A DNA stretch of 64,000 nucleotides from Amoebophrya sp. A120 (lineage: Eukaryota > Protista > Dinoflagellata): NCBI GenBank assembly GCA_905178155.1, contig CAJINV010000012.1, positions 988,004 through 1,052,003 of the forward strand, in the 5' to 3' direction. Shown here one piece after another: positions 11,351 through 63,800 of the stretch (within the stretch, counting starts at the first letter, position 1; every line of letters begins with the position of its first letter). The position numbers were made by a program, and so were the translations under genes. The notes beneath the pieces are model-generated. The model searched no databases. It was not told the DNA's origin and saw nothing but the letters and a program-made list of their open reading frames with translations.

Positions 11351-14300
11351 TCATGTACTATGCTTGATGTTGGCTCTACTTCCTCCTCTTGCTCGGGAAA
11401 ATTGAAGACGCTCTTCTTCTTCCGGGGACGTGGTTTGTTCTTTGCGCTAGTGTTCGCGCCAGTGCTTTATGCATTGCAAAAGTATCGTATTCGTACTCGT
11501 ATAAATGCATTACAAATTTCCTCAGCATGAGAAATGACGTTTGTAATGCGGATTTACCTTAAGGACAAGATTTGTAATGCAAGTCTTGCATTTATACGAA
11601 TACGAGGCTTTTGCACAGGATATGCTCTCTTCTCCAGCGATATTCGCATCGGACTCTTGTCCAGTTGTTGTGGATGAAACTCCTGCTCCGTCAGAAGGGA
11701 AAGAAACAGAAACTCGCCCGGCTGGCTCGATCGATAAACCTATTTTTTGGTTCCTCTTCACGACTCCTTCGCTGGGCAGCAACCTCGCCACCGCAAGAGC
11801 AAAACTTTTTGCGGCTCGCTGAGAATAATTTGTGATCTCGTTGGAGGGAAGAAATTTATCCCCTGTGGACAGCGGCGGGAGAGGAGAAGGTGTCGTCGCT
11901 GTGCTGTCGTGAAGCTCTGTTTCAGCACTAGTACTTTTGAATGTAGCGGAAAATGTGACACTAGCTGCGCTGTCTCCTCCCTCTACCGCCGGCACCATAT
12001 TGCTGGTAGTAGAAGAATTTGAAATTCTCCGCTTTTCTTCAGCCGCGCCAGAAACTAGTACATTTTCATCAGCCCCGACGATTCGAGACAGGCCCTCCAA
12101 CAGAAGGCTGGCGTCGCGAATGATTTTCCTCTTCCGATCCATATCTACTACCTCATCTTTCTTGCAAGCACCGAATGAAGGACGCGGCTTTGTTCCAACA
12201 TTAGAAGCAGGAATAGCTGCTCTAGCTGTTGAAGGTGTTGCAACATCGTCGGCTTCATGTGCTCTGTTCAACGTTGTTCTGGTCCCCGTTATGCTAGCGC
12301 CTTCTTGATTTGTATTTCCGGTTGTTCCTCCTGAAGCCGCTTGTTCCGTGGCATCACTTTTTGTAGGTTCTGGCTCACGCTCGGGGTCAACAACAACACC
12401 CGTGGAGCTACGAGCTCTACTTGCGAACAACCCGCACGACCCCAGACGTGCACACAGGCGGTCCTCCCACCAGCGATCATGATATCACGAGAAAAAAGTG
12501 TTACAGTTACACATTTGTTGGAGTAGTTTCTGCATCACAAATTTTCTCTGTGTGGCAGGGAAAACTTGTAATGCGAAAATCACAAGGGAAAACAGGAAGA
12601 AAATGAGGATCCCAAGCATTTCCTGCATGAGAGAGGTTATCTGTGTTGCCGGTCTTGCAACACAATGTGTAACTGTAACACTTTTTTCTTGCGATACATG
12701 AGAACAGTATTCCAGTACGGCTTCCGCGGTACTTCGCGCTGTCTCCGAGGGCGCACAGGTGCCGAGAAACCAGAACAACTTCCCCAGCATTTGCAGGTCG
12801 GTTTGCAGGATATGGTTGTAGTGCGGATCGTAGTTAATATCGTGGTGGTCCGGTCGTGGTGCAAAGCTGGAACTAGTATCCTGTGGTAGATGCTCGTGTT
12901 CAGGTGGCTCCCCATCCTCATCTTCCGCAGCAGCTCGTCTTGCATCTTCTGGATTACCAGCGTCTGGCCCTCTTCTAAGCGGCCTTTTCGTCACGAAACC
13001 TAATTCTTTCCCAGCAGGAGCAGCAAGCTCGTGCTCGTCTCCCTGCCGTAGTCGGGTCAGAACGAAAATTTTCTGCCGGATAAGACTGCATAAGGCCTCC
13101 GCGATTGGAGTCGGGGAAGTGGAGGTGTACGTGTAGTAGTTGCAGACGATGCTAGAAGAACGAATGGTAGCAATATCATCTTTTCCAGCTTGTTTTTCGA
13201 ATGCTGCTTGTTCTTCGTCACCTCGGCAGCTTGGTCGTTCTATGCTTAAAAGAAGCTCATGTTCATCTTCTTGCATCGTTCCTCCAACTCGTCTTCCTTC
13301 AGCGCTGGAGATTGTGCGGGCGGTGGTCGATGATTGTACCGTGGTAGAGGAGGCCGCAGATAATTGCGTGCGCATCGATGTCGGTTTTGCAGTACTGTCA
13401 TGACCAGCAGATGACACTAGTGCAGTTATAACAGAGCTCGTCGTCGGCTTGTGCGCAGTGACAGTCTCTCTCCGCCCAGTCGCCGTTATGCTTGTCCTCC
13501 CGGCCCGGGCCAGCAAGAAACACATCTCGATGAGATTCCTCCACCGTGGGTCGTGGGTGACAGTTATTATGACGTCGTTTTTGTCATAGTAATCTCTGGA
13601 AGTCGTGCCTTCCGAAGTGGAGGTGCTGAGCCTTGAAGATGTTCTTGACGGTAGAGAATAAAGAAGTTGGCCTAGTTCTAGTTGTCCAGCACCAAGGGGC
13701 ATCGCTTTATTCCCAGCATACTGAAAATCCCTTCGAATTAACCGCAAACCGACGCGCTCCAGGTCCTGCCATACAATCGATGAACGCTTTGGTTTGACAT
13801 CACTGTTACTTTTCATCTTCGACCAACGACTAGGACTACTGCTCTCCGCGGCGAGCGCCATTGCTTTCTCGCTTCCGGCGATACAGAACCAGTCTTCGAT
13901 CTTCTTCAAGTCAAGAATCGCCTTTCGGCTCAAGCCAAATTCGAGGTTTTCCTTCTGCAAAACTTGATCCTTTATGCATTGCAAAAATGTCTGGGTCTGG
14001 AAACTTGTAATGCTGAATAGCCACGATGGACTGTGCCTTGAAGTTTAACTGCAGTGCAGCATGACAAATCTTTCAAACGCTCATCTGTCATGCGCAGGAC
14101 GCATTACAAACCGAGTTTTTGCATGACGAAAGTGTAGCGCTTTATTTGCTGCTTTAAGCGATACAGGTTTTTTAGGAATGCGAAACACGCAATACAGGTT
14201 CAACCTTTCCAGACTCAGACATATTTGCATTTGATATCCTTCACCTCGTCCACGGTTTCCTTCCGGGTCGCCAACGCCTTTTCCACGTGTTGAAAGGTTG

Positions 14301-61766: not shown

Positions 61767-63800
61767 TCACATTCCCATCATGCTTCCCAGCATCGGGTTT
61801 GCGAACCGCATGGCCCGGACCTCCGGATGAGGGACGTGTTCGAATATGGCGCTCTCAACTGTTACATTCTCAACTGTTACATATATTTGTCATGCAAAAA
61901 CGCTACTACTCTGAACACTGTCCAGCCTTTTCCGCATGACAACTTCTCGACGCGCTAGATAGTATTACAATCTGCTCCAAACCTGTCATGCAAAAGGCGC
62001 AGCGTTTCCCTTTCACTTTTGCCATTCTTGCATTACAAATTTCATGTAACAGTTGAGAATGTAACGTTTGAGAACGCTATATCGAAGGAGACGACTTTGT
62101 AGCTCAAATCCCGCAAGTACTCGTTTGATTTCTTGACTTGCTCCGTCTCCTTCTCGATCCACTTCGACCTGTTTTCCTTCCCCACCTTGTACCGGATAAA
62201 CGCGCCCTTGTTTTTCATTTGGTCGCAGTAGTTCGGCGCGGAAAAGATGGTGCACAGCTTTCCGTTGTGCTCGAGCTCGTACCTGGGGTTGCATTTGTTT
62301 ATTTCCCAATAAAAAAAAACAGTTATGCATCCATTTTCTTTGTGCGACAACATGAGGCATTAAAAGTCAACATCTTAAATTTCTTATCTATATACCCCTC
62401 ATCCTTCATTTCGTGACTTCTGACCACCATGCTGAGGTCATTCGTCTTCAGAAAATTGTCCGTTACGTCGTGGCCGAATGCCACTCCTACCCCGCGTTTA
62501 CTGGGATATCTACCGGGAAGCGGGCCGGGATCCGACCAGAGCATTTCCACTATTCTGCCACTGTCTGGGGGCTCGCCGATTCTGATATAGAAAAGCGTTT
62601 TGTCGACTACATGCGGAATTTATTATATATCAGGATCATAACCATAAGCGCGTGCGGTTACAAGTAACTACTTTGAAGATGAAGATGCAGAACCTGTGAC
62701 GATGGTTGTCTACGATTCAAATTCGTGGCTACTACCATGCGCACACCTTAAGTCCTCGTCAGCAACAGCATAGTCTTCACCTTCAGAGAGTATTCTTATA
62801 CCTGTCCTCTTTCTCCAGATCTTCGATAGTGACGTTGTCTGCGGAGAACAAGCCGCCATGAACGATGAAGATTTCCTTGTTCAGGACGTGGCAGAGCGGC
62901 AAGTAGCAAAACGTCTCGCAGAACAGGTTGTAGAGCTGCACGTCAAATTTGTTTCTGGTTTCCCCCTCAAACCCGTACAGCTTGTTCATGTTCCGCGTCT
63001 CGTGGTTGCCGCGGGCCAGGTGAACCTGTGATAATACACATCGCAATATTAGTATGAATTGCATTGCAAATTTCCTCATCATGACGAGAAATGGAATCTG
63101 TAATGCTGATTTTAGGAAAAAGATTTGTAATGCACAATTGCAAAAAAAAACAGCTGCTACGCACAAATCTCTTTTACCTTATCCGGGTAGCACAGTTTCC
63201 AGGCGAAGAGGGCGAGTATGACTTCTATCGAAAAGGACCCTCGATCCACGAAGTCACCGTTGAAGAGGTACGGGTTGGTTTCTGACGGGAATCCGTTCAG
63301 GGAGAAGATGTTCAGCAGATCATAATACTGCCCGTGCACATCCCCACACACCGTGAACTCGTCTTCCGCTTCCAGTTTCTGCACGGTCGTGTGCGTTTTT
63401 AGTAATTTCAGCACGTCCAGGACCATTTGGTAGGCGGATTTTTTGTGGATCACCTTCTGTTCCTTCATGTAATCCAGGAACGTTACGACCCAGTCGGAGG
63501 TAATTTGGTCCTTGCCCGGGTAGTATCAAATGCAAATATGTTTGGGTCTGGAAGATTGTCATGCTAGTCCGACATGACTCTGCGATCTGTATTGCCTGGC
63601 CACAAGCAGCCCCTCTTGTCTGTCATGCAAAAACGCAGTTTCTCATGCGTAATACGCAGCACAGAAGCACGATAATACTTGTCATGCTTGGCGGCGCATT
63701 ACAGTGCACTTGCTGTTCACTGACTTGCATCACAACTCTCCAGACCCAGACATATTTGCAATGCATAGGTAGATGGGCCCCTTGTAGGTATCCTCGATCT
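61767..63800 (-). CDS. PPP5: Serine/threonine protein phosphatase 5, catalytic domain (5' part continues beyond window)
   Basis: [41 protein letters not shown] and PP5-type tail [17 protein letters not shown] introns 62283-62395, 62582-62801, 63026-63177 plus two introners. Confidence 0.92.
61845..62081. mobile_element. Introner, family D
   Basis: Family D TIRs; perfect DR tcgaa. Confidence 0.95.
63026..63177 (-). other. Canonical GT-AG intron derived from a family B element
   Basis: AAG|GTAAAA...TCACAG|GTT joins [13 protein letters not shown]; core caaatttcctcatcatgac...tgtaatgctgattt...aaaagatttgtaatgca matches family B. Confidence 0.8.
63524..63767. mobile_element. Introner, family A
   Basis: Family A TIRs; perfect DR ggtag; join YKGPIY|PGKD. 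Confidence 0.95.

Follow-up and report, generated by a model that had tools for sequence, protein, structure and literature searches.

How do short repeats of different families come to carry one and the same nine-letter word, and does that word serve their movement or their removal from RNA? This question is raised by a stretch of 64,000 nucleotides of the dinoflagellate Amoebophrya sp. A120 (contig CAJINV010000012.1, positions 988,004 to 1,052,003; hereafter the window), where minus-strand genes are broken up by some 65 short repeats. A sequence-only reading of the window had proposed that the word TTGTVATGC (V being A, C or G) is arrayed inside every family and is rare elsewhere, and that it is a candidate recognition code, common to all families, for one trans-acting factor. 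We show here that this motif is under purifying selection and is not a mere trace of descent, and we weigh what it may be selected for.

The elements

Forty-four of the repeats are high-confidence elements, which start with TAT, end with ATA and pass a test for terminal inverted repeats (TIRs); most are flanked by a 5-bp target site duplication (TSD). A TAT end and a TSD matching at no fewer than four of five positions were requirements of the detector, and TAT ends were also seen in repeat families that were found without the end filter. The families referred to below come from our own clustering of the elements and not from the families A-J of the sequence-only reading. Across 15 families, positions 11-15 of the element ends are A in 64-89% of cases, the A-run being weaker in families D, 7 and 9. 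The earlier description of the TIRs as unrelated was therefore overstated: TAT and the A-run are common to the families, and the copies at 11468 and 13973, which belong to different ones, are identical over their first 15 nt.

Introners of A120 have been defined by an inverted repeat that starts with TAT, followed by seven variable bases and an A-run, and by direct repeats of 3-5 nt over the exon/intron borders (PMC7789003). The elements of the window show the same succession (TAT, seven variable nucleotides, at least three A) and have 5-bp direct repeats, with the exon/intron borders lying inside the TSD. Moreover, they are removed from mRNA as non-canonical introns in runs that were guessed to be RNA. 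Judged by these sequence features they fit the published A120-type introners, and as elements they are already known. They also have the properties of miniature inverted-repeat transposable elements (MITEs), being short, non-coding and repeated, with both TIR and TSD.

Distribution of the motif

The window contains 135 exact matches to the motif, against 2.26±1.59 in 100 shuffled versions. Most of them (102) lie inside the 44 high-confidence elements (10,239 bp, 9.96 per kb) and another 24 inside 19 masked stretches of partial or decayed elements (3,731 bp). The remaining 50,030 bp hold nine (0.18 per kb), of which two belong to an element that the mask had missed (43584-43831) and three to inserts within long elements. 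The two GT-AG introns with RNA support (23929-24109 and 28943-29133) have none. The motif is thus rare outside the elements, as had been claimed, and at a 55-fold enrichment the possibility that it is no more frequent than background falls away. Since repeats enrich any word that they carry, sharing between families is the fair control. The word TTGTNATGC ranks first among 5,197 gapped 4N4 words and is found in 10 of 12 clusters and in 40 of the 44 elements. The copies without an exact motif are those at 4775, 18834, 39109 and 50889.

A second data set was obtained by scanning with the TIR of family B, which yielded at least 155 loci (L001-L155) from one assembly, 80 of them with long flanks, or about 496,000 unique 31-mers (~0.5 Mb). 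Family B is over-sampled by design and the other families were obtained from the flanks. Best matches to the window elements are 88-96% identical, so that this assembly represents the same or a close species. Among the loci listed we found 342 further elements (the detector gave one false positive in 236,750 shuffled bases), of which 286 have a perfect 5-bp TSD. The exact motif is present in all 15 multi-copy families, in 348 of 369 copies, and in 12 of 17 singletons. The claim that it occurs in every family thus stands for all multi-copy families. The copy numbers that had been reported for single elements are correct (four in 23333-23493, three in 40089-40245, three in 56288-56577 and two in 52146-52254), but the statement that both orientations occur within elements does not apply to 56288-56577 and 52146-52254, which have a single one. 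On the transcript the motif shows no strand bias (56 versus 46).

Conservation and architecture of the sites

Similarity between families resides largely in the motif itself. Of the 105 pairs of family consensus sequences 54 reach z>=5, and only four still do so after the motif has been masked. In 17 subfamilies of five or more copies, motif positions differ from the consensus in 164 of 5519 cases (3.0%), versus 3846 of 23523 (16.3%) for the interior, a roughly 5-fold difference. The centre position of the motif varies freely (136 of 692, 19.7%) and avoids T: the change from C to T accounts for 5 of 74 changes there versus 825 of 1767 in the interior. The TIR positions 15-30 are conserved within each family (6.0% change).

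The site can be described as an 11-bp asymmetric pseudo-palindrome, TTG-T-V-A-T-G-C-A-A. In 12 of 15 family consensuses a pair of sites in the same direction stands 31-33 bp apart (null mean 2.05), a distance of three helical turns, and none of 3000 simulations reached 12 families in any spacing window. The centre of the first site lies 37-40 bp from the end of the element at 11 of 30 ends, 46-51 bp at 15 and 55-63 bp at four, and 41-45 bp is empty; the two preferred distances are about one helical turn apart. This clear positional constraint, together with the masking result, disposes of the possibility that the families simply align end to end.

Three specific models of the site were rejected. 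A homodimer palindrome is contradicted by the rarity of the symmetric C/G and T/A variants (1.0 and 0.6 versus 13.4 plus 6.4), and a 12/23-like pairing rule by ends that pair 33/33, 42/42 or mixed. The context VATB, with an invariant ApT, is that of AMT1-type adenine methylation; in the motif, 15% of the one-mismatch sites have T in place of A, whereas TGC is kept in 98-99%. A literature search found no paper on 6mA in Amoebophrya. The likeness of the motif to a composite Sox-Oct site is presumably a coincidence.

Splicing of the elements

Contigs from the runs guessed to be RNA skip the elements. In all 13 joints examined the intron consists of 1 nt, the element and 4 nt, in transcript sense, and the joints 7692-7913, 7952-8141 and 30099-30294 allow no shift, so that the -1/+4 positions are unambiguous there. 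This geometry (1 nt before TAT, 4 nt after ATA) is fixed even where the TSD has decayed. Left out of this count are a joint at 12517-12656, which falls between the TIR arms (side 27), and a go-back of 59 nt at the margin of the stretch. The skip 30099-30294 is absent from run X5, since 28710-32475 is continuous there. Removal of 13 elements by the -1/+4 rule, together with two GT-AG introns, turns the P-type ATPase gene into an open frame of 1,739 codons without a stop, and the removed lengths agree with the contig coordinates.

The motif is not required for this excision, because motif-less copies are spliced at the same offsets. More specifically, the spliced copies at 4775, 7696, 9147 and 10964 have no interior site with a position weight matrix (PWM) score of 8 or more, the spliced element at 6867 has one marginal PWM site in 771 bp, and the contig depth at motif-less spliced copies is about 98. 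In addition, the family C copies at 23537 and 27475 have opposite orientations, each with a one-stranded set of motifs, and both are removed from the ATPase transcript. A splicing cis-element acting in RNA would be strand-specific and needed for excision, and the motif is neither. The terminal stem is still predicted to fold in most decayed copies. Motif bases are often predicted to be paired (0.84 and 0.69 versus 0.59 for the interior), and 38% of 104 motif sites have another such site as their predicted partner. The spliced elements 6867-7637 and 7696-7912 fall outside all families found and their ends still pair; compensatory evolution of the terminal hairpin is possible.

Target sites and element ends

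In reconstructed empty sites the TSD is near random, with T at -15 and G at -13 from the insertion centre. The target motif is one-sided, left and right being anticorrelated (p 6e-9). In families A and B, 144 of 187 sites have TNG at -15/-13 on one side or the other; counted by side, it is present in 41%, versus 2-10% at other offsets. Its side is independent of the type of element end and unbiased relative to the inferred transcript (32 upstream, 43 downstream). Other families have different motifs in the same window of -19 to -10 (family-specific at -13, p 1.6e-12). The leave-one-out likelihood is positive in all eight families with at least 11 sites and negative in both control windows. The best alignment of the A/B target motif to the internal motif is over the TTGT half of the latter. 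Target motifs match the ends of their own family no better than those of other families, and 1,056 + 774 tests for guide-like covariation between target and element ends, copy by copy, gave nothing beyond chance.

As a separate observation, nucleotides 4-7 of the ends in families B, C, E and D occur as a few discrete alleles, some common to several families, that assort randomly between the two ends (family B has 39 identical pairs versus 42.9 expected); the ends of family A match below random (2 versus 9.4). This pattern may reflect an exchange of ends.

Long candidates bounded by TIRs proved to be either chance pairs or short elements enlarged by a nested or foreign insert. A viral scan by TIR pattern gave no matches; by motif-pair pattern it gave 33 single matches with two to three motifs per 3 kb, except that one of them has eight, in a low-complexity repeat.

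A docking site for a shared mobilisation protein?

Since copies without the motif are still spliced, the motif is likely a docking site for a shared mobilisation protein. The full explanation that we favour, with confidence and doubt in balance, is that it is a site in double-stranded DNA for one protein that aids the transposition of all families, while family-specific components read the ends and choose the target. Such a protein would bind the phased sites and bend or bridge the element of 110-320 bp so that the ends meet in a transposition complex; by analogy with IHF beside the ends of IS10, its role may be architectural. The family-specific parts would read TIR positions 15-30 and the target, and an integrase-type cut would make the 5-bp duplication. 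Splicing would be a separate layer, probably guided by the terminal RNA hairpin, with cuts at the -1/+4 positions relative to TAT and ATA. A wider picture can be put forward only tentatively: in a genome that has no recognised transposase, a modular machine might have spread introns by the tens of thousands. This machine would combine a common DNA-binding factor, on helically spaced TTGTVATGC arrays, with interchangeable family modules that recognise the TIR as well as a one-sided target motif some 13-15 bp away from the insertion centre, and a separate, non-spliceosomal ruler would then set the cuts 1 nt ahead of the terminal RNA hairpin and 4 nt beyond it. Of the code for one trans-acting factor proposed from sequence alone, the common code is supported and a putative DNA-binding mobilisation factor is favoured, whereas a factor for splicing or excision is disfavoured because motif-less copies and both orientations are spliced.

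A number of results weigh against a shared mobilisation protein. No autonomous element was found in the window or in the about 0.5 Mb of loci, Pfam detected no transposase domain in 119 open reading frames (ORFs; the 115 longest of 483 locus ORFs and four window ORFs), and the A120 study of Farhat et al. (PMC7789003) reports none either. The likeness of target and internal motifs is weak (permutation p 0.014-0.93 over eight families, none surviving correction), the period of the end distances is broad (R 0.62-0.66 for 10-12 bp), and other spacings between sites (convergent, divergent) are not significant. The family counts are incompletely independent, since a few families are related after masking. 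The splicing evidence consists of contigs of guessed-RNA runs from two samples of one study. Finally, in older copies (with a TSD mismatch, 153 versus 318) motif change rises by +0.028 per site (confidence interval 0.012-0.044), about half the +0.053 of the interior, and where the subterminal TIRs have diverged, the motif is still better preserved than the interior (8-12% versus 25-30% change in the most TIR-diverged bins). As the two intervals overlap, the constraint appears to act mostly, and maybe not wholly, before insertion.

This slower decay of the motif in older copies favours an alternative, in which a host chromatin or transcription factor binds the motif DNA after insertion and host selection keeps it, e.g. 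for easier transcription or co-transcriptional intron removal. Strand independence and phased spacing would suit any DNA-binding protein. We nevertheless hold the host factor to be unlikely, because motif-less copies are spliced in contigs of considerable depth, because motif changes in two decayed copies, 9147 (5/16 positions) and 7956 (6/16), are as frequent as those in the interior, and because the detection and alignment of old copies is biased to those that keep the motif. Quite unlikely, too, is a single integrase-like transposase for all families, with the motif as its subterminal binding site in the manner of hAT and CACTA elements. The TAT ends, A-run and 5-bp TSD common to all families would be in line with it, as would the alignment of the A/B target motif with the TTGT half. 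A120 family fam38, moreover, is listed as Ginger-like, with a 5-bp TSD and TA/TA termini (Gozashti et al. 2025, PMC12130899). Yet a single enzyme does not readily account for target motifs that differ sharply by family, or for TIR positions 15-30 that are conserved family by family, and the likeness between motif and target is statistically weak.

An RNA-level splicing code (pairing with an snRNA, an RNA-binding protein or motif-motif hairpins) in place of a missing U1 pathway seems very improbable. The elements are indeed non-canonical introns with motif bases that tend to be predicted as paired, and Farhat et al. did not detect U1 in A120 (PMC7789003). However, the removal of motif-less copies at the same offsets largely refutes necessity, C copies with one-orientation motifs are removed in both orientations, most sites are not predicted to pair with another one, and the spacing of 31-33 bp is a helical length of DNA. 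Least credible is that the families share the motif by passive descent from a single ancestral element that already had internal repeats. Such descent would explain the shared end grammar and the four family pairs that remain similar after masking, but as the sole explanation it is refuted by the 5-fold lower substitution and by the avoidance of T at an otherwise free centre; 101 of 105 pairs also lose similarity with the motif masked. Descent plus selection is compatible with the other readings.

Other features of the window

The coordinates of the elements and of the host gene are collected in Table 1. Three elements contain foreign inserts of 0.8-1.8 kb: two in the window (33652-35738, whose insert has a poly-T run and CCCTAAA-like words, and 57071-58760, with a GATATATCTGGG-like tandem repeat) and one at positions 505-1608 of locus L021. 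The four window ORFs tested had no Pfam match, and the loci hold no second copy of an insert except a 91-bp match for that of L021. A duplicated 70-bp exon-like stretch (19342-19411 and 20242-20314) flanks a probable longer element at ~19415-20238, which has one exact motif (19472) and is joined across by RNA-type contigs. A low-complexity coding repeat of 274-349 bp lies at 3552-4209 in two GC-rich copies, and positions 591-2090 of locus L018 hold an ORF with a C-5 cytosine DNA methylase domain (E 1.7e-37).

Table 1. Elements and host gene, in window positions
Positions	Feature	Exact motifs	Remarks
196..442	decayed E-family element		
529..797	decayed B-family element	1	
901..1206	decayed B-family element	2	
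4313..4537	E-family element	1	spliced
4775..5114	decayed C-like element		spliced; no motif within 1 mismatch
5394..5747	decayed B-like element	1	spliced
6867..7637	771-bp element		spliced; no motif within 1 mismatch
7696..7912	motif-less element		spliced; unambiguous -1/+4 joint
7956..8140	decayed A element	0	spliced; unambiguous -1/+4 joint
8332..8666	decayed B-like element	1	spliced
9147..9341	decayed A element		spliced; no interior motif
10964..11167	motif-less element		spliced
11468..11622	A element	3	spliced
12483..12696	E element	2	
13973..14236	B element	3	
18834..19156	family-4 element	0	4 one-mismatch motifs; spliced
21918..22178	B element	3	
22930..31488	host P-type cation ATPase gene region		minus strand; interrupted by 13 elements and 2 GT-AG introns; Pfam Cation_ATPase_N/C, Hydrolase
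23333..23493	A element	4	
23537..23815	C element	4	all minus strand; removed from ATPase transcript
24212..24361	A element	2	
24431..24668	family-5 element	1	
25542..25802	B element	1	TGT left end
25908..26164	B element	2	
26429..26664	D element	3	
27217..27396	A element	4	
27475..27753	C element	4	all plus strand; opposite orientation to 23537; removed from ATPase transcript
27820..28085	B element	2	
28253..28397	A element	3	
28472..28733	B element	1	
30103..30293	A-like element	3	decayed TSD; intron 30099-30294, unambiguous -1/+4; unspliced in run X5
32940..33190	B element	1	
33299..33560	B element	2	
33652..35738	B element		TSD cagca; about 1.8 kb foreign insert
36239..36462	E element	1	
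39109..39379	D element	0	2 one-mismatch motifs
39764..40022	B element	2	altered left end
40089..40245	family-12 element	3	
40358..40614	B element	3	
41418..41626	decayed A-like element	0	spliced
42215..42503	C element	1	
42985..43240	B element	2	
43296..43526	D element	4	
43584..43831	E element	2	
43880..44010	A element	1	ends by eye, approximate
47572..47807	D element	3	
48716..48876	A element	2	ends approximate
48928..49208	C element	2	
49325..49484	A element	2	
49631..49887	B element	3	
49965..50269	C-like element	1	
50889..51041	A element	0	3 one-mismatch motifs
51213..51491	C element	5	one orientation
51559..51717	A element	2	
51748..51999	B element	3	
52146..52254	109-bp family-8 element	2	spacing 32 bp
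52417..52679	B element	3	
54529..54755	B element	2	
54840..55101	B element	2	
55156..55310	A element	2	
56007..56240	A element	4	internal duplication
56288..56577	C element	3	one orientation
56762..57031	family-9 element	1	
57071..58760	A element		TSD atcct; about 1.5 kb foreign insert
61845..62081	D element	3	
63054..63182	decayed A-like element	1	ends approximate
63524..63767	B element	3	within PPP5-type phosphatase gene

Comparison with known systems

The subterminal repeats of hAT and CACTA elements and the IHF sites beside the ends of IS10 are short, multi-copy, present in both orientations and located just inside the ends. The elements studied here likewise have several short conserved sites near both ends and in both orientations. 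They differ in that one site is found across families with different TIRs and targets, and in that the elements are spliced introns.

The Ginger/Tdd transposons (Bao et al. 2010, PMC2836005) are alike in having TIRs and a TSD of 4-5 bp. They are unlike the present elements in their termini (TGTNR instead of TAT) and in their targets (CCGG/CCGT or RTATAY, where the TSD composition here is near uniform), and they encode a Gypsy-integrase-like DDE transposase, to which none of the 119 ORFs corresponded. At the targets of retroviral integrases the palindrome seen in the average stems from a motif that is itself non-palindromic and can lie on either of the two strands (Kirk et al., 10.1101/034991), a likeness to the one-sided targets described above; here the motif is strong, lies 10-19 bp off centre with a near-random TSD and depends on the family. 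The nonconventional introns of euglenids share a TIR-based terminal stem, TSD-like repeats at the junctions and a proposed origin from MITEs (PMC11282704), but have another end consensus, and the consulted part of that account does not mention a shared internal motif.

The closest relatives are the A120 introners themselves, with their common TAT/A-run ends, 5-bp repeats and non-canonical splicing (PMC7789003, PMC12130899), and the family lengths of about 109, 150, 209, 236, 252-263, 279, 308 and 323 bp resemble those of published TIR families in the supplement rows. Two questions are left open by Farhat et al. (PMC7789003): what mobilises the introners, given that no transposase is known, and how their splicing proceeds in the absence of U1. 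In the accessible portions of the literature on A120 introners (PMC7789003, PMC12130899), no account was found of the internal motif that the families share, of their target motifs or of a fixed splice offset. The motif provides a concrete bait for the purification of a mobilisation factor, and the family-specific target motifs provide a count and a signature of the targeting components. The -1/+4 rule and the motif-less spliced copies separate a mobility code from a splicing code and allow a precise substrate design for the splicing enzyme. In this last respect the elements depart from the published accounts of A120 as far as these were available, in which the splice positions vary relative to the hairpin: here all 13 joints share one offset, and in three of them it is unambiguous.

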